Origin: Candidatus Saccharimonadales bacterium
GTDB lineage: Bacteria; Patescibacteriota; Saccharimonadia; Saccharimonadales; DATKHC01
DNA length: 39,630 nt
Assembly (NCBI GenBank): GCA_038317055.1
Contig: JBBQBA010000004.1
Location: forward strand, 1-39,630
Direction: 5' to 3'
The notes below the pieces were generated by a model that was not told the origin of the DNA, ran no database searches, and was given only the letters and a program-made list of their open reading frames with translations. This document shows positions 315-14,541 of this stretch, one piece after another. A program made the position numbers and the translations under genes. The stretch's first letter is position 1, and every line of letters begins with the position of its first letter.

Positions 315-1232
315 ATGAAAAATATACACCACAAAAATAAAAACAAAAATAAACACGATCCCGTATTGCTTGAAGCAGTACTGAAGTATCTAGGTCCTAA
401 GCCAGATGAATCATATCTGGATGTAACCGCAGGATATGGAGGTCACGCCAAAGTGATAATGGAACGGACTTTAAAACCCTCACTAGTAACTCTAGTAGAC
501 CGTGATAGCAATGCTATTACGTATCTAAACGAGCAGTTTGCTGGCTTAGATATTGAGATAATCCAGGAGGATTATTTATCAAAGTCCAAAGAATTACTAA
601 AAAACGGTAACAAGTATAATATTATTTTTGCGGATATTGGCGTATCGTCACCGCACCTTAACGAAGCGAGTCGTGGATTTAGTTTTAAATCCGATGGACC
701 ATTGGATATGCGGATGGACCAAACTCAAGAGCTAATGGCTTCAGAAATAGTTAATCACTATAAAGAAGACAAACTTGCCAAATTAATCAAAGATTATGGG
801 GAAGAGCGAAGAGCTAGGAAAATCGCTGGAACGATTGTTAGAAATCGACCAATTCATGGTACAGAAGAACTTGCGCAAATAATAAAAAGTATCTCACCCG
901 GATACAGTAAAGTTCATCCAGCAACTCAGACGTTTCAAGCGATCAGAATTGCCGTGAACAATGAACTAGAACAACTTAGACAGGCACTTCCTGTATGGGT
1001 TGATCTGTTAGAACCGGGAGGGCGGTTAGGTGTAATTAGCTTCCATAGCTTAGAAGATCGTATTGTAAAACAGTTTTTCAAAGAACTGTCTGTAAATAAA
1101 TATGATTCCACGCTAGAGTTAATCACCAAACGTCCGATCATTGCTGATCGAGAAGAAATAGTTATCAATCCGCGTTCTCGTAGTGCTAAACTACGAGTCG
1201 TTGCAAAAATAAACAAAAAAGGAAGGGAGTAA
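315..1232 (+). CDS. rsmH: 16S rRNA (cytosine1402-N4)-methyltransferase RsmH/MraW
   Basis: HxPVLL start, DVTAGYGGH SAM-binding motif, DIGVSSPHL, GFSF..GPLDMRM, ISFHSLEDRIVK, NPRSRSAKLR. Confidence 0.97.
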   Translation: MKNIHHKNKNKNKHDPVLLEAVLKYLGPKPDESYLDVTAGYGGHAKVIMERTLKPSLVTLVDRDSNAITYLNEQFAGLDIEIIQEDYLSKSKELLKNGNKYNIIFADIGVSSPHLNEASRGFSFKSDGPLDMRMDQTQELMASEIVNHYKEDKLAKLIKDYGEERRARKIAGTIVRNRPIHGTEELAQIIKSISPGYSKVHPATQTFQAIRIAVNNELEQLRQALPVWVDLLEPGGRLGVISFHSLEDRIVKQFFKELSVNKYDSTLELITKRPIIADREEIVINPRSRSAKLRVVAKINKKGRE

Positions 1233-1236
1233 GTTA

Positions 1237-1296
1237 ATGCCAATTCAGGTAAAAAACCTCTCCCGGGCGTACAGGGTTAAAGTCCGAGTAGGATAG
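1237..1296 (+). CDS. Putative 19-aa leader peptide MPIQVKNLSRAYRVKVRVG
   Basis: ATG 1237 preceded by purine-rich GGAAGGGAG (1221-1229); TAG at 1294-1296 lies inside a hairpin. Confidence 0.4.
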   Translation: MPIQVKNLSRAYRVKVRVG

Positions 1297-1340
1297 TCCT
1301 GTACCACCGACTCCTACTTGCACTTCGGTGCAAGTAGGGG
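1264..1340 (+). promoter_or_regulatory. Two-hairpin structured RNA element between rsmH and ftsL-like gene
   Basis: GTACAGGGTTA(1269-79)/TAGTCCTGTAC(1294-1304); CTCCTACTTGCAC-TTCG-GTGCAAGTAGGGG (1311-1340) with a cUUCGg tetraloop; G-U pairs favour the + strand. Confidence 0.7.
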
Positions 1341-1382
1341 CCAAAAAAATAAATATAAACGTAAAAACAAAAATAAAAAAAT

Positions 1383-1730
1383 ATGACATATTCAAACTCA
1401 ATGGCGGTAAACCGTCAAAGATTCTCTACCAGGAATCAAAACACAACCAATTTTAGAGAAGACAGGGGTAGAATAGGCCCAATAAGTAATACGATTATTT
1501 TAATTGTATTAGCTTGCTTACTGGGCTTATTATATTTGACTCAAGTAACTAAGACTAATGCCTATAGTTACAAGATCAACTCACTGCAAACTCAACAGTC
1601 ACAACTTCAATCTGAACATGATCAGCTAGAAGTTAATGCCGCGAGATTGCAATCAGTTGAAAGAGTTGCAGCTAGTTCTGTAAACCAACAACTGGTAGCG
1701 GTAACCCCTACAGCAACAGCACAAAACTAA
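1383..1730 (+). CDS. FtsL-like bitopic cell-division protein
   Basis: Short cytoplasmic N-terminus, one TM helix, coiled coil; position directly after rsmH. Confidence 0.75.
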   Translation: MTYSNSMAVNRQRFSTRNQNTTNFREDRGRIGPISNTIILIVLACLLGLLYLTQVTKTNAYSYKINSLQTQQSQLQSEHDQLEVNAARLQSVERVAASSVNQQLVAVTPTATAQN

Positions 1731-9524: not shown

Positions 9525-11813
9525 CTATTTCTTGGATTTTTTGCGCCTAGGTGGAGCTTTCCTTCTTGGAGCCTCTGCGAGCATCTTTTTTGCTTCCGCT
9601 TCAGTTATCTTTTCAGCGTCTTTTTCATCTGTTATTTTCACATTTCGCTTGCCATTTGTAATGTATGGTCCATATGGTCCGTTTGCGATTTTTATACCAC
9701 TATCAAACTGCTTAATATACTTGTTATCTATTTCCTTTTTCTTTTCCGAATATAGTGCAAGAGCTTCCGACTCAGTAATTTTCAATGGATCCATCTTCTT
9801 TATAGATACAAAAACCTTACCAATTTTGACGTAAGGACCAAATCTACCGATGTTAGCAAGTATTTCTTCGCCTTCTTTAGTCTTCCCTACAATGCGTGGA
9901 AGTTTAAACATTTCGAGTGCATCTTCTAGTTTGACAGTTTCTAGGGTTGTATTAGCAGGGAGTGACGCAAATGTGGGCTTTTCCTCATCTGTTGCTTCAC
10001 CCATCTGTAACATTGGCCCATATCTGCCGTAACGGGCTAAGATCGGCTTATTTGTCTTAGGATCGACCCCAAGATGCTTAGTTTGGGTGCTCTCTTCTCT
10101 GCTTATAGATTCTGACTTCTCGACTAGTTCATGGAAACCACCGTAGAATTTCTTAATCATCTCCACCCATTTTTCGTCACCATCAGCGATTTTATCGAAA
10201 TCTTTCTCCGCGTTTGCGGTGAAGTCGTAATCTACAATCGAAGCAAAATTCTTTGTTAGAAAATCAGTTGTAACATCTGCGAGTGGAGTTGGGAGAAGTT
10301 TGGCTCGATCAGCCCCATAGTTTTCGGTTTCAGTGATCTCTTCAATTATCTTTTTCTCGAGTTTTAACAGTTTAACTTCGCGTTGTTTAGCTTCTAAATC
10401 TGATTTTTCTACATAACCACGTGTTTGAATTGTCGAGATCGTTGGTGCATAAGTACTTGGACGACCAATGCCTAATTCTTCTAGCTTTCTGACCAGTGTT
10501 GCTTCGGAATATCTGGCACCTGGTTTGGAAAAAGTTTGTCGGGCCATTATATGTCTGGCATCTAGTATTTGACCAACAGTCATCTCTGGCAAGATAACAT
10601 CTTCACCTTTACGTCCATATACTTTCATAAATCCATCAAAGTTAACTATTTCACCTTTAGCTAGGAAATGTTCAGATCTATTACTGATCTTAATTATAAT
10701 GTCTGTTCTTGATAGTTCAGCGTCAGACATTTGACTTGCAACAGTTCGGTTCCAGATCAATTTATAGAGTTTATTCTGACCTTCATCTTCTGAAATTGTG
10801 GTTTTAGAAAAACTAGTCGGACGAATTGCTTCATGAGCCTCTTGTGCGCTGGACTGTTTAGTCTTATATTGATGTTCTTTATGATAATTTGCACCGAATT
10901 GTGATGTTATATAGTTTTTAGCATCGGATAAAGCCTGAGAAGACAAAAGAGTGCTGTCTGTACGCATATATGTAATGTGACCTGACTCATATAGTCTTTG
11001 TGCTAAAGTCATAGTTTGTTTAACGCTGTAACCAAGTCTCCTTGCTGCTTCTTGCTGCAAGCTACTAGTAATAAAAGGAGCACCTGGTGAGCGTTTACCT
11101 GGCTTTTTATCTATCTTATCTACATTAAACTTTGCATCTACACAATCTTCTAGGAATTTTTTTGCTTTCGAATCACTATCAAACTTGGTCGAAAGCTCTG
11201 CAGGTAGTTCAATATCTTTATCCACAAACTCAGCCGTAACTTTATAACTATCGGCGACTTCATGCTTATTAATCTCTCGTTCTCGTTCTACAATTAATCT
11301 CACAGCAACAGATTGTACTCGGCCTGCACTAAGTCCTGGTCGAACCTTTTTCCACAGGACTGGACTTAGTTCATAACCAACTAATCGATCAAGTATTCGA
11401 CGAGCTTGTTGAGCATTAACCAGATTAATGTCTATAGTTCGGGGATTTTTAATAGCGTGAGTTATAGCTGACTTAGTTATTTCGTGGAAAACTATACGTT
11501 TGGTAGTCTTAGGGTCTAGTTTCAAAGCTTCGCATAAATGCCATGCTATTGCCTCACCTTCGCGGTCTTCATCGCTTGCTAGCCACACATCGGCACCTTT
11601 AGCAAACTTCTTCAAATTATTTACAATTTTGGTTTTATCAGCACTTATCTGGTAAGTTGGTTCAAAGTTATGTTCAACATCAATACTTAAATTTTTCTTC
11701 GGTAAGTCTCTTATATGGCCAAAACTGCTTTGGACATCATAGCTACTACCCAAGTATTTTTCTATGGTCTTTGCTTTAGCTGGACTCTCTACTATTACTA
11801 ACTGTTTTTTCAT
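9525..11813 (-). CDS. topA: DNA topoisomerase I (type IA) with C-terminal GRYGP/GRFGP repeats
   Basis: IVESPAKAKTI, DEDREGEAI, SAGRVQS, ITYMRTDS catalytic Tyr, AQEAHEAIRPT, GIGRPSTY. Confidence 0.98.
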   Translation of the reverse strand: MKKQLVIVESPAKAKTIEKYLGSSYDVQSSFGHIRDLPKKNLSIDVEHNFEPTYQISADKTKIVNNLKKFAKGADVWLASDEDREGEAIAWHLCEALKLDPKTTKRIVFHEITKSAITHAIKNPRTIDINLVNAQQARRILDRLVGYELSPVLWKKVRPGLSAGRVQSVAVRLIVEREREINKHEVADSYKVTAEFVDKDIELPAELSTKFDSDSKAKKFLEDCVDAKFNVDKIDKKPGKRSPGAPFITSSLQQEAARRLGYSVKQTMTLAQRLYESGHITYMRTDSTLLSSQALSDAKNYITSQFGANYHKEHQYKTKQSSAQEAHEAIRPTSFSKTTISEDEGQNKLYKLIWNRTVASQMSDAELSRTDIIIKISNRSEHFLAKGEIVNFDGFMKVYGRKGEDVILPEMTVGQILDARHIMARQTFSKPGARYSEATLVRKLEELGIGRPSTYAPTISTIQTRGYVEKSDLEAKQREVKLLKLEKKIIEEITETENYGADRAKLLPTPLADVTTDFLTKNFASIVDYDFTANAEKDFDKIADGDEKWVEMIKKFYGGFHELVEKSESISREESTQTKHLGVDPKTNKPILARYGRYGPMLQMGEATDEEKPTFASLPANTTLETVKLEDALEMFKLPRIVGKTKEGEEILANIGRFGPYVKIGKVFVSIKKMDPLKITESEALALYSEKKKEIDNKYIKQFDSGIKIANGPYGPYITNGKRNVKITDEKDAEKITEAEAKKMLAEAPRRKAPPRRKKSKK

Positions 11814-11887
11814 TAATTCTCTTGGCTTATGTTTAAATTATCAGTACAAGCTGTAAGGTTACTTGAGACTCTAAATAAAAGCAAGTA

Positions 11888-12061
11888 TTACATGTTCCTC
11901 ATAAATTTGAACCAAAACCATAGTCCCACAAAGCATCCAACAAATGCGAGCAGATTACTCCATAGTCCGAATATACCCCCACCGAACAAGACTGTACCAA
12001 TCAATTGGAATACTAAAGACACGATTCCTATCATTACCCACATCATGCCTTTGCTGCCCAT
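11888..12061 (-). CDS. Small Gly-rich 2-TM membrane protein (57 aa), absent from the ORF track
   Basis: MGSKGMMWVMIGIVSLVFQLIGTVLFGGGIFGLWSNLLAFVGCFVGLWFWFKFMRNM; TAGAAT box 6 nt upstream of ATG. Confidence 0.75.
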   Translation of the reverse strand: MGSKGMMWVMIGIVSLVFQLIGTVLFGGGIFGLWSNLLAFVGCFVGLWFWFKFMRNM

Positions 12062-12131
12062 AGCTACATTCTACCCTACAATAAAGTGAAGCATAAACGA
12101 TTTGACAAATGTACGAAAATGTATAAAAGTA

Positions 12132-12160
12132 TTGACAAAGTGACATAAATTTGCTAAAAT
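12132..12160 (+). promoter_or_regulatory. Sigma70 promoter pointing into a non-coding region
   Basis: TTGACA-N17-TAAAAT, with TG just upstream of the -10. Confidence 0.8.
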
Positions 12161-12166
12161 CGCAAA

Positions 12167-12525
12167 CCGTAAGCATACTATTATGCTTACGTACCTTATA
12201 CCCCCTATTCTAACAATATTGTTAGATTGTTTTAGAGCGTGCCATTAGTAAAGTAGTTACCCTCCACTAAGCTTTTGTGCTGTTATAACTCCTCGGAGAT
12301 TTAATATTAAAACGCTCTAAAACAAACTAATCCCTTTAACTACTCCTCCCAAAATACTTGTATTTCGGATAAGGACCCTTTTGGTGGGTCAGCGAGTTTC
12401 CAAGACGATCATTTATGATCGGCGCATCACCCTATGGATAAATAGTGAATGACGCTTCGCTTAGGTGGGTTGAAGGGTGTAATCGAGTCTACAGCGGTGC
12501 CCACCCCCTCTGTAGGCTCGTTTTT
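12167..12525 (+). ncRNA. Candidate structured ncRNA of about 360 nt, unknown class
   Basis: Own promoter and terminator, multiple nested helices, no long ORF. Confidence 0.6.
12484..12525 (+). terminator. Intrinsic terminator
   Basis: CGAGTCTACAG..CTGTAGGCTCG-TTTTT. Confidence 0.75.
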
Positions 12526-12527
12526 AT

Positions 12528-13169
12528 TTAGATTAAAAACGAACGGGTCTCTTGATTAATTTTGCCGCTAAAAATGAATTCTATCATTATAGCGGTAGTT
12601 TCTTTTTTGAGTTCTTCTATCTTATCAGTTTCGTTTTTCTTAAATTTTGCCAGCACAAAGTCGGCACTATCTATTTTCTCTGGGATCTTAGGGCTAATAC
12701 CGATTCTAAGTCGACTAAAGTTCTCTCCAATATGATCCATAACAGAAGATACGCCATTATGTCCTGCACTGCTACCACCAGTTTTAGTACGAATCTGACC
12801 GAAGTTAATATCTAGTTCATCATGGACTACTAAAACTGAACTTGGCGCAATTTTATAGAAGTTACAGACAGACTCAACCGCTTCTCCGCTTAGGTTCATA
12901 AGTGTAGTTGGTTTAATAACTATTACTCGTGTGTCAGCAAACTGTCCCATAATAAAATGAGACTTAAAGTTCTTTTTATCATGCCAACCGGATAGTTCTT
13001 CTCTACTTTCAACCAATGCATCTACGGCTTCAAAACCTATATTATGTCTTGTTCCATCAAATTCTTTACCGATGTTACCTAGCCCAACGATAATCAATGT
13101 CTTATTTAGACCGATACTGAATATTGGTTTGCTTTCGTTGAAAGATGGTTTTCTTTGAAATAGAGCCAT
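12528..13169 (-). CDS. pth: Peptidyl-tRNA hydrolase
   Basis: IVGLGN.G..F.GTRHNIGF, KPTTLMNLSG, VHDELD, GSSAGHNG, RLRIGI. Confidence 0.97.
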   Translation of the reverse strand: MALFQRKPSFNESKPIFSIGLNKTLIIVGLGNIGKEFDGTRHNIGFEAVDALVESREELSGWHDKKNFKSHFIMGQFADTRVIVIKPTTLMNLSGEAVESVCNFYKIAPSSVLVVHDELDINFGQIRTKTGGSSAGHNGVSSVMDHIGENFSRLRIGISPKIPEKIDSADFVLAKFKKNETDKIEELKKETTAIMIEFIFSGKINQETRSFLI

Positions 13170-13170
13170 A

Positions 13171-14541
13171 TTATTTTGAAATTCTTGTAGTGCTGTCTTT
13201 TTTAGTAAGCTTAGCTTCTTTTAGTCTATCAACATGCTTTTCAAAAAACCAAAACTTAATCGATGTGCCCTCGAAACCAAAAGTTTCTCGTAACTGTCGT
13301 TCCATATAGCGTTTGTAACTCCAGTGTAGGAATTTAGTATGAGCACCAAATACTTTAAAAGTCGGACTAGGATTATCGTTTTCTTGAATTATATAGTTTA
13401 ACTTTGGTGATCGGTTCTTAAGTCCTGCTGGCGGATGGGCTCCGGTAGTAGATTTAAGCCAACGGTTAAGTTCGGTAGTTTTTAGTTTCTTATTTCGTTG
13501 GTCTCTTATATCTACAGCTAGTTCAAATAGTTTATTAACGTTTTGACCAGTCACTGAGCTTGTAAATATTAATGGTGCCCATGGAACAAATTCATAATCA
13601 TGTCTGATTCTTGGAATAAGTTTGTCGTGGAGGAACTCTTTCTCGTCAATACTATCCCACTTACTAATAACAAGTATTAAACCCTTGTTAGACTCCTTTA
13701 CCATGCCGGCTATTTTTTGATCTAAAGCCACACTGAGTTCATTAACATCAATTAGTAGTAAACATACATCTGCTTCCTCAATGGCTGCTAGGGTTCTAAT
13801 AACACTAAAATGCTCAATGCCGTGTCCAATTTTACCGTTTCTTCTGATACCAGCGGTGTCCATAAGCTCAATTTCACCACCTTTATAGTTAACAGATGTT
13901 TTATTTACGTCTCTTGTGGTACCGGCTCTCTCAGATACAACGGCTTGCTGTTTTTTAAGTAATGTATTGAAAAGTTGGGACTTGCCTACGTTTGGTCGGC
14001 CCACCACAGCTAATTTGATTAGATTAGGGTTATATTTAGCCTTAGCCTTAGGTATTTGCTCTACTAACTGGTCTAAAAGCTCGTCAAAGCCCTTAAATTG
14101 AGTTGTGCTAGTGCCAATTATCTGTTTAATACCTAGTTTTTGGTAATCTGTTAGATCGAATTGCCTTATCTTATCTATTTTATTAACTACTAAAAATACC
14201 GGTTTCTTACTTTTAAGCGCTAGTTTTGCAACAGCCCTATCTTCTTGGGTTATTACAACATTAGATTCGATTACTACCCATATAACATCGGCGCTATCTA
14301 GAGCTTGTGAGATCTGTTCTTGAATGGTTGCTTCAAAATCGTCATCAGGATCTTTCATGCCGGCTGTGTCGACAATCCAGAAATCTTGACCGTTATGTGA
14401 GGCTCGACCCATTATTGAATCTCTTGTAGTACCTTCTTCTCTGGCTACGATGGCTTCACGACGCTGTAATATTGCATTAAATATACTAGATTTCCCAACA
14501 TTGGTTCGTCCAACAATAGCAATAATCGGTAAGCTCTTCAT
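13171..14541 (-). CDS. der: Ribosome biogenesis GTPase Der (EngA)
   Basis: Two G domains (GRTNVGKS, GRPNVGKS; DTAG twice) and a KH-like C-terminus. Confidence 0.97.
   Translation of the reverse strand: MKSLPIIAIVGRTNVGKSSIFNAILQRREAIVAREEGTTRDSIMGRASHNGQDFWIVDTAGMKDPDDDFEATIQEQISQALDSADVIWVVIESNVVITQEDRAVAKLALKSKKPVFLVVNKIDKIRQFDLTDYQKLGIKQIIGTSTTQFKGFDELLDQLVEQIPKAKAKYNPNLIKLAVVGRPNVGKSQLFNTLLKKQQAVVSERAGTTRDVNKTSVNYKGGEIELMDTAGIRRNGKIGHGIEHFSVIRTLAAIEEADVCLLLIDVNELSVALDQKIAGMVKESNKGLILVISKWDSIDEKEFLHDKLIPRIRHDYEFVPWAPLIFTSSVTGQNVNKLFELAVDIRDQRNKKLKTTELNRWLKSTTGAHPPAGLKNRSPKLNYIIQENDNPSPTFKVFGAHTKFLHWSYKRYMERQLRETFGFEGTSIKFWFFEKHVDRLKEAKLTKKDSTTRISK

Follow-up and report, generated by a model that had tools for sequence, protein, structure and literature searches.

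RNAs of the RsaE/RoxS type are trans-acting small RNAs (sRNAs) of Gram-positive bacteria that target Shine-Dalgarno (SD) sequences with C-rich loops. Here we describe a stand-alone RNA gene at positions 12132-12529 (forward strand) of a 39,630-nucleotide (nt) stretch of contig JBBQBA010000004.1 (called C4 below) from a Candidatus Saccharimonadales genome (GCA_038317055.1); the whole of this stretch is referred to as the window. The gene has its own promoter, a conserved multi-helix fold and a covarying intrinsic terminator. An original prediction, made from the letters of the window, had already read it as a stand-alone structured non-coding RNA, and promoter, strand, covariation and terminator all agree with that reading. 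We suspect that the RNA is a trans-acting antisense regulator of Hsp20 translation, in which an invariant hairpin (hairpin A) occludes the hsp20 ribosome-binding site and lowers synthesis of the protein. Judged from sequence comparison, we consider this reasonably likely. What is established computationally is the promoter, the terminator, the conserved fold, the range of genomes with the RNA, and a complementarity to hsp20 that is conserved and in part covaries.

Like the RsaE/RoxS RNAs, this RNA has its own promoter and intrinsic terminator, and an unpaired C-rich loop motif (CCCUCC) is predicted to pair with the SD of its target. Unlike them, it has no Rfam match and is not a short sRNA, having ~365 nt and at least four covarying helices in addition to a long-range helix, it has one dominant target (11-18 nt of complementarity), and the RNA itself is conserved across a whole order. 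With trans-encoded base-pairing sRNAs in general it shares a promoter and Rho-independent terminator of its own, a target on another contig, and conserved start-region complementarity with compensatory changes (in genomes G031 and G044), for which a shuffle test gave a modest result. Small heat-shock genes can be governed by RNA thermometers in cis, of which the cyanobacterial hsp17 type is one (PMC4152365). As in these thermometers (ROSE-like, hsp17), the gene class is the same and the SD and start region would be masked by base pairing. However, the masking sequence lies here on a separate RNA between topA and pth on C4, with hsp20 on contig C1, and not in a 5' untranslated region, and simple melting seems unlikely for predicted duplexes of such stability (-20 to -40 kcal/mol).

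Large structured RNAs such as OLE, raiA, ROOL, GOLLD and HEARO resemble the RNA in their length of several hundred nt, complex conserved fold, variable peripheral stems and restriction to particular lineages, but no model matches it and, unlike most of them, it has a specific predicted mRNA target. It is also comparable to housekeeping RNAs (RNase P RNA, transfer-messenger RNA (tmRNA), 6S RNA and signal recognition particle (SRP) RNA) in being single-copy, near-universal in its clade, strongly promoted and of similar size. Those RNAs, however, were found elsewhere in the genome (6S RNA only as a candidate) or, in the case of SRP RNA, are missing, and a model of the 5' domain did not detect this RNA in other orders of the class.

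The proposed target rests on one element of the RNA:

12245..12272, forward strand: hairpin A, whose loop holds GUUACCCUCCAC (12256-12267) and whose stem covaries (helix 4).

The loop resembles the 3' tail of the genome's own 16S ribosomal RNA (GGAUUACCUCCUUUCU, with the 16S 3' end at C1:485520), UUACCCUCC standing against UUACCUCC, and genome G386 has exactly UUACCUCC. Given this likeness, the genome was searched for complements of the loop. The sole near-perfect one lies outside the window, at the start of a 161-amino-acid (aa) gene on C1 (350917-351399, minus strand) that Pfam identifies as Hsp20/alpha-crystallin. The hsp20 leader GCUUAGCGGAGGGUAACAAUG and the RNA segment GUUACCCUCCACUAAGC (12256-12272) are paired at 16 of 17 positions, in a duplex reaching from upstream of the SD to the base that precedes AUG. 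Of 4,051 candidate start regions scored against hairpin A, that of hsp20 came out on top with -28.9 kcal/mol (mean -7.9, s.d. 3.1), and the next distinct site had -23.6. It came first again at -30.0 kcal/mol (mean -15.5, s.d. 3.2) when 36 windows covering the whole RNA were scored against 2,165 start regions, a scan in which nothing else stood above noise. The genome has the word GGAGGGTAAC at two places only, one at hsp20 and the other on the strand opposite the RNA gene, and GGAGGGTA lies at the ribosome-binding site of just one other gene.

Other 10-nt matches to SDs of the AGGGGGU type exist in the start-region scan of this genome, and the raw list of exact complementary words is dominated by AT-rich chance matches. 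Among the conserved blocks of the RNA, only hairpin A matches the hsp20 mRNA (z -6.3; none of 300 background windows equals it). A search for a further site at which the RNA could pair with this mRNA found none, and the segments J1/2, J3/4 and the terminator loop (placed below) yielded no outstanding start region. The original prediction had proposed three CCUC(C) tracts as anti-SD seeds. The one near 12260 holds, being part of the conserved loop that is complementary to the hsp20 ribosome-binding site, whereas those near 12290 and 12345 fall in variable hairpins and do not.

The extra G of the hsp20 leader (GGAGG-G-UAAC) suits the extra C of the loop better than it suits the 16S tail, and the RNA should therefore out-compete the ribosome for this site. 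SD use in the genome looks weak: GGAGG stands upstream of 9 of 569 long open reading frames (ORFs) and GGAG upstream of 59 of 569, by a crude count that takes the first ATG of each. A general anti-SD sponge is thus less attractive than a dedicated regulator.

The pairing extends well beyond this genome. A sequence search matched the RNA in 52 of 61 related genomes, sampled at one per family for 57 families of one order (the tally includes G037, which has no match), and hsp20 is single-copy and well conserved in 56 of the 61. Thirty hsp20 leaders contain GGAGGGTAAC in 19 cases, GGAGGGTA in 24 and GGAGGG in 27, and are otherwise variable. The complementarity between hairpin A and the hsp20 SD and start region covers 11-18 nt. 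In twenty genomes with both loci, the predicted duplexes have -20.2 to -40.2 kcal/mol, and core-anchored columns 6-16 are paired in 17-20 of them. Contiguous pairing reaches 18 base pairs (bp), for instance in G009, and lineage-specific flanks lengthen the duplex in G000 (the present genome), G011 and G028. For 18 of these 20 genomes the hsp20 start is the best site for the genome's own hairpin A, among ~1,600-2,300 windows of the DNA retrieved for each. Compensatory changes across the two loci occur at two pairs in G031 (U:A to A:U and A:U to G:C) and at three in G044. Within the divergent family f58, where leader pairings were read by eye, four of five genomes examined keep 10-11 paired bases, such as AAAGUGGAGG with CCUCCACUUU. 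The extended motif was found in 0 of 5 genomes of other orders that lack the RNA, and the SDs there are ordinary.

Many hsp20 genes (L096-L125) also have, ~60-75 nt before the start codon, a -10-like TATACT followed by a conserved block of approximately UAACAAAAAUUGCAAAU. Nothing in the RNA is complementary to this block, which lies at the likely 5' end of the mRNA and may serve as a stability element or an operator.

The transcription unit of the RNA is delimited by four features:

12132..12160, forward strand: promoter, with -35 element TTGACA (12132-12137), 17-nt spacer, -10 element TAAAAT (12155-12160) and extended -10 TGcTAAAAT (12152-12160).
12162..12529, forward strand: predicted transcript of ~365 nt, with its 3' end in the U tract.
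12485..12519, forward strand: terminator hairpin, with a 10-bp stem GAGTCTACAG/CTGTAGGCTC (12485-12494 / 12510-12519) and a 15-nt loop CGGTGCCCACCCCCT.
12520..12529, forward strand: U tract GTTTTTATTT, ending 1-2 nt short of the stop codon of pth on the opposite strand.

The promoter, originally described as TTGACA-N17-TAAAAT, matches the consensus at 11 of 12 positions, with TG ahead of the -10 element, and a promoter scan ranks it best among five promoter-like sites in 11700-12900 (shuffles 3.9 +/- 2.0). All 30 aligned relatives retain the block AGTATTGACA...TTTGCTAnAAT, which persists, altered, in family f58. A conserved GCAA comes after the -10 box, from which the 5' end of the transcript can be placed, by prediction, to within a few nt. 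Between the same landmarks, relatives span 314-573 nt. The forward-strand terminator of the original prediction is confirmed as well. Its stem was recognised by eye; the terminator scan reported none because its loop limit is 3-8 nt and the loop here has 15. In an unfitted 3' alignment of 29 relatives, 9 of 10 stem pairs have changed on both sides and 99.7% of cells are paired, and the loop is identical in 29 of 29 aligned copies. A T-rich tract follows in 28 of the 29 (L010 stops at a contig end), and no T run follows the stem on the minus strand. GCCCACCC of the terminator hairpin is retained in family f58.

The gene is flanked, as had been claimed, by topA (9525-11813) and pth (12528-13169) on the minus strand, and beyond pth lies a gene for a der/EngA-type GTPase (13171-14541, minus strand), all three confirmed by Pfam. 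ORFs within the RNA region do not exceed 36 aa. Between topA and the RNA promoter is a very hydrophobic ORF of 57 aa (11888-12061, minus strand) without a Pfam family. By tblastn it was matched in only 3 of 30 related loci (L001, L005 and L019), and on this count we rejected the idea that the RNA is a type I antitoxin for it.

The remaining features of the RNA, in order of position, are as follows:

12168..12191, forward strand: hairpin P1, CGTAAGCATA / TATGCTTACG with loop CTAT; 5 of 6 modelled pairs changed on both sides.
12192..12208, forward strand: single strand J1/2, UACCUUAUACCCCCUAU.
12209..12226, forward strand: hairpin P2, TCTAACA / TGTTAGA; 93% of cells paired.
12229..12239, forward strand: 5' strand of P3, GTTTTAGAGCG, pairing with 12313-12323.
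12273..12312, forward strand: P3b, a hairpin in the P3 junction, variable in length and sequence.
12313..12323, forward strand: 3' strand of P3, CGCTCTAAAAC.
12324..12331, forward strand: J3/4, AAACTAAT, nearly invariant.
12332..12340, forward strand: 5' strand of P4, CCCTTTAAC, a long-range helix that closes the 3' domain and pairs with 12469-12477.
12341..12463, forward strand: variable interior of the 3' domain, with four helices, all in the minimum free energy (MFE) fold.
12374-12378/12386-12390, forward strand: interior helix GACCC/GGGTC, in the MFE fold.
12391-12396/12455-12461, forward strand: interior helix AGCGAG/CTTCGCT, in the MFE fold.
12406-12411/12416-12421, forward strand: interior helix CGATCA/TGATCG, in the MFE fold.
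12422-12430/12445-12455, forward strand: interior helix GCGCATCAC/GTGAATGACGC, in the MFE fold.
12464..12469, forward strand: GGTGGG, possible pseudoknot partner, complementary to CCCACC (12500-12505) in the terminator loop.
12469..12477, forward strand: 3' strand of P4, GTTGAAGGG.

All helices given in the original prediction lie where it had placed them and are part of the MFE fold. The 365-nt forward strand reaches -116.6 kcal/mol in this fold, where 100 shuffles average -80.5 +/- 5.3 (z -6.8) and none does as well. With z -6.9 for the minus strand, folding energy alone cannot tell the two strands apart. The paired columns hold 99 G-U or U-G cells and 14 A-C or C-A cells, which favours the forward strand; combined with promoter conservation and a T tract on one side only, this excess fixes the strand.

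Covariation across the loci of relatives, which the original prediction had put forward as a check, bears out the fold. A covariance model of the 5' domain (R1, 170 positions) was used to align 49 sequences, in which 94.2% of cells pair and compensatory changes are seen at 19 of 29 pairs. When partners were slid, pairing fell to 29-41% of cells and the changed pairs to 5-11, and none of 500 shuffles attained the observed values. Another 76 public sequences, possibly sharing species with the first set, gave compensatory changes at 22 of 29 pairs and 93.3% of cells paired. Both alignments of the 5' domain are fitted to the model, which favours the structure. RNAalifold run on plain MAFFT alignments recovers P3 (GUUUUAGAGCG/CGCUCUAAAAC), the long-range P4 (CCCUUUAAC/GUUGAAGGG) and the terminator stem.

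P3 has 98.9% of cells paired, with changes on both sides in 10 of 11 pairs among the 49 sequences and 9 of 11 among the 76, and in family f58 both of its strands are swapped for a different complementary sequence. The start of P3 resembles a type II CRISPR repeat, a likeness set aside here; the segment is one strand of this covarying helix and is replaced by other sequence in f58. P4 is paired in 99.2% of cells; at its last pair 24 sequences have C:G and 3 have G:C, L012 carries one additional A that is answered by an additional T in the opposite strand, and in G386 both strands are altered (CCCUCUAAC/GUUAGAGGG). All 49 copies of the first set and 75 of the 76 in the second contain the hairpin A motif UACCCUCC, which is of UACCUCC type. 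Within J1/2, GYACCUU is nearly invariant and the ACCCCC part is absent from some copies (L019 and L025, for example). P3b closes on CTTCGG in several relatives, among them L010, L012, L016 and L019.

The tip of P2 carries additional stems of variable length in relatives, and its insertions form hairpins themselves in nine copies (L016-L018, L020, L022, L023, L025, L026 and L030). The GUUAG of P2 (12220-12226) can pair with CUAAC upstream (12209-12215) or with CUAAY downstream (12326-12331, beside P3). RNAalifold picked the latter pairing with J3/4, and the tip insertions support hairpin P2; a structural switch between the two is possible. In the interior of the 3' domain, both strings of AGCGAG/CTTCGC occur in 13 of 29 sequences, and the variable pair is C:G seven times, U:A four times (one doubtful) and U:G twice. 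Five copies (L007, L017, L023, L025 and L028) have a different interior. The pseudoknot between GGTGGG and the terminator loop is a hypothesis drawn from complementarity: 0 of 6 pairs of this helix (GGGUGG with CCACCC of the loop) changed on both sides, and its sides are almost invariant, so covariation neither supports nor refutes it. The longest copy, L019 (genome G005, 1084-1656, minus strand), has an insertion of ~230 nt between P4 and the terminator hairpin and an RNA of ~573 nt; in several other copies an additional hairpin of 30-60 nt occupies this position.

With regard to distribution, the 5'-domain model detected the RNA in 39 of the 46 genomes sampled from the order, with exactly one match per genome, indicating a single-copy gene, and gave no match in the 105 genomes sampled from other orders of the class. 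All seven misses belong to three small-genome genera of family f58. The region near pth was inspected in five of the seven, and three of them (G260, G386 and G550) have shortened, diverged copies, that of G386 lying ~1 kb from pth and inverted; in G098 and G522 no copy was recognised within 1.5 kb of pth. Family f58 (L056, L057 and L092-L094) has the smallest genomes of the sample (0.6-0.8 Mb) and strongly diverged copies, shortened in three genera. At 27 of 30 loci topA and/or pth lie within 1.5 kb by tblastn, and both do so at 17.

The alignment consists of invariant blocks interrupted by variable hairpins. The blocks are the promoter; GUACCUUAUACCCCC; UUCUAACA...UGUUAGAUU; GUUUUAGAGCG; AAGUUGUUACCCUCCACUU; CGCUCUAAAACAnACUAAYCCCUUUAAC; GGGUGGGUUGAAGGGUGU; and the terminator loop CGGUGCCCACCCCCU. 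In 401 genomes sampled across the phylum, the loop 15-mer has 11 exact matches, all within the order, and its 18 one-mismatch matches elsewhere are as common as those of a reversed control pattern (22). A two-block 3' signature is present in at least 120 public species genomes. Among the 80 matches listed, the titles of 66 name Candidatus Saccharibacteria, Saccharimonadales, Saccharimonas or Saccharimonadia, which fits the taxon guessed in the original prediction, and the rest comprise 5 of the Patescibacteria group, 4 named only 'bacterium', 4 with labels of other phyla and 1 Saccharibacter isolate. The 5' domain is also present in 76 of these 80 records, including the four labelled as other phyla; the Saccharibacter match, which lacks the 5' domain, is probably due to chance. 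We conclude that this is a new RNA family confined to one order, whose carrier records are mostly titled Saccharibacteria or Saccharimonadales.

The four contigs labelled as other phyla (L139, L160, L162 and L216, titled Parcubacteria, Dormiibacterota, Bacillota and Sulfotelmatobacter) carry the complete RNA and are probably mis-binned or mislabelled Saccharimonadales. The RNA could therefore serve as a contamination marker.

In the openly accessible literature, to which the search was limited, we found no description of this RNA, nor of any trans-acting sRNA for small heat-shock genes; a prior description elsewhere is possible. lysM-TM7 is the only TM7-specific motif of a 224-motif survey, and term searches in two Breaker-lab genome surveys gave no mention of these bacteria.

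Comparison with Rfam reached no known class at the locus. At gathering scores, Rfam 15 gave four tRNAs and nothing else in the whole window; at E<=10 the RNA region had three chance-level matches (14.6-21.3 bits against cut-offs of 40-51), and 20 diverse homologous loci had four, at E 0.16-0.29, all far under cut-off. Neither the window nor these 20 loci gave an Rfam match to RNAs of the RsaE/RoxS type, OLE, ROOL, GOLLD, raiA or HEARO. Read on the minus strand, the terminator loop resembles the conserved T-box sequence, a likeness that we rejected given that no T-box match appeared at E<=10. The original prediction saw no hallmarks of tmRNA, RNase P RNA or SRP RNA, and rightly so: RNase P RNA lies at C1:471101-471449 (257.7 bits) and tmRNA at C1:152589-152994 (79.6 bits), with no tmRNA found in the window by ARAGORN, and SRP RNA, Ffh and FtsY were not found at all. 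The locus has no match to 6S RNA (RF00013). A 6S-like match at C1:470058-470189 (forward strand, L040), ~900 nt upstream of the RNase P RNA gene, scores 34.5 bits, below the cut-off of 46.4, and may be the 6S RNA of the clade.

The absence of SRP RNA raised the idea that the RNA is a divergent form of it. Models RF00169 and RF01854 had no match in the genome, none at the locus up to E=10, and none above cut-off in any of 26 relatives. We rejected this idea, given that Ffh and FtsY are missing too and that the loss is already in print. The genome has no detectable SRP54 M domain (PF02978) or GTPase domain (PF00448), no DTAGR motif in six frames and no detectable FtsY. The SRP54 GTPase domain is absent from 41 relatives, save for P-loop noise at ~20 bits, and no PF00448 match turned up among 121 genomes of the class or 81 of the phylum, all 14 controls being positive. 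One study reports that neither ffh nor ffs was detected in Parcubacteria (PMC4508563), and another that many candidate phyla radiation (CPR) bacteria are without two SRP subunits (PMC8080830). SRP loss in these bacteria is thus already published and is not new.

Returning to the proposed regulator, the RNA would be transcribed independently and constitutively, and would be a stable, structured molecule in which a weak AU stem carries a C-rich loop of 11 nt. Hairpin A, made up of UGUUACCCUCCAC with the bases beside it, would pair in trans with the SD and the bases up to the start codon of the hsp20 mRNA, and the pairing would extend through the hairpin A stem, block initiation and hold down Hsp20. 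We infer that the duplex forms in cells and that its effect is repression rather than activation. Under stress, this repression might be relieved if hsp20 transcription outran the RNA or if the scaffold were remodelled. The other ~340 nt (P1-P4, the 3' domain and the possible pseudoknot) may provide stability, protein binding or sensing. More speculatively, the scaffold could be a sensor of temperature, of a metabolite or of chaperone and proteostasis state that gates hairpin A, giving a sensor-coupled trans anti-SD riboregulator of the heat-shock response that, in these minimal genomes, would replace the cis thermometers and protein regulators of other bacteria, or the RNA could be the core of a Saccharibacteria-specific ribonucleoprotein; we regard these further ideas as tentative and rather doubtful.

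Several points weigh against regulation of hsp20 by this RNA. A single convincing target was found. The hsp20 start is not the best site in G022 and is tied in G033, pairing being weak in both, and G260 of family f58 shows no clear match to its hsp20 leader. The leader shuffle gave only a modest signal, with 347 of 480 cells paired against 336.7 +/- 5.0 and 132 of 5,000 shuffles reaching 347, because most positions never vary. Few lineages supply the compensatory changes, and genomes that are related do not count as independent; any anti-SD-like loop fits strong SDs, and most of the pairing is invariant. The ~25-nt hairpin leaves ~340 nt, conserved across more than 57 families, unexplained. 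Physiological heat would not melt duplexes as stable as those of 13-18 bp, and the direction of regulation is an assumption. With regard to expression, two RNA runs hold small shares of the sampled words of the stretch (0.12 and 0.08), and a 374-nt contig from an RNA library spans 12170-12523, which is a weak hint only. The contigs from two RNA libraries carry relatives of the RNA, mostly at 85-99% likeness, and cannot show transcription, strand or ends; such libraries may contain DNA, and we give no weight to the missing coverage of the flanking genes.

The best-surviving alternative is that the RNA is mainly a subunit or scaffold of a lineage-specific ribonucleoprotein, or another housekeeping RNA, for example one that imitates the 3' tail of 16S and so binds a ribosome-associated factor, with the hsp20 match secondary or a by-product. 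Its size of 314-573 nt, single copy, order-wide presence and strong, constitutive-looking promoter would suit such a role, as would the conserved junctions with variable peripheral hairpins, the invariant terminator loop with its possible pseudoknot and the likeness of the hairpin A loop to the 16S tail; moreover, the hsp20 pairing accounts for only ~25 of ~365 nt. However, there is no candidate for a partner protein, and no conserved neighbour past the general synteny of topA, pth and der. The extended, partly covarying match to hsp20 is unexpected from 16S mimicry alone, and the loop fits the hsp20 leader better than the leader fits the 16S tail. We consider this alternative possible, if unlikely.

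The sign of the effect could also be the opposite, such that the RNA stabilises or activates the hsp20 mRNA, or that an abundant hsp20 leader titrates the RNA from another task as a sponge. The same complementarity data would be expected, and nothing computed fixes the regulatory sign. Against activation, the duplex covers the SD and reaches the start codon, an arrangement that blocks initiation in known cases; against a sponge, no second target was found from which the RNA could be titrated. Either version seems improbable to us.

That the element instead acts in cis for minus-strand genes, as a 3' untranslated region or terminator of pth or as a leader of the small ORF and topA, would be in keeping with the minus-strand orientation of all neighbouring genes, the equally good minus-strand fold and the topA/pth synteny, but we rejected a minus-strand leader on the G-U counts, the promoter and the T tract, and with the displaced, inverted G386 copy and the rarity of the small ORF we give the idea hardly any credence. 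A very divergent SRP, 6S, tmRNA or RNase P RNA, an idea encouraged by the missing SRP RNA and the sub-cut-off 6S match, can be dismissed with near certainty, given the Rfam results at the locus and its 20 homologues, the location of the RNase P RNA, tmRNA and 6S-like match elsewhere, and the published loss of the SRP.

Saccharibacteria are ultrasmall epibionts with genomes of ~1 Mb. The RNA is a first candidate RNA for Saccharibacteria, and would rank among the most conserved non-coding genes of the order after ribosomal RNA, tRNA, RNase P RNA and tmRNA, and as the first with a concrete target. According to a 2022 preprint, the best-studied Saccharibacteria strain is without validated small RNAs. 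The two-block 3' signature marks the order specifically and flags contigs labelled as other phyla, and the ~340 nt outside the pairing invite structural and biochemical study. If the pairing with hsp20 is true, the stress response of these minimal cells would be wired post-transcriptionally by a trans-acting RNA, where other bacteria use thermometers in cis.

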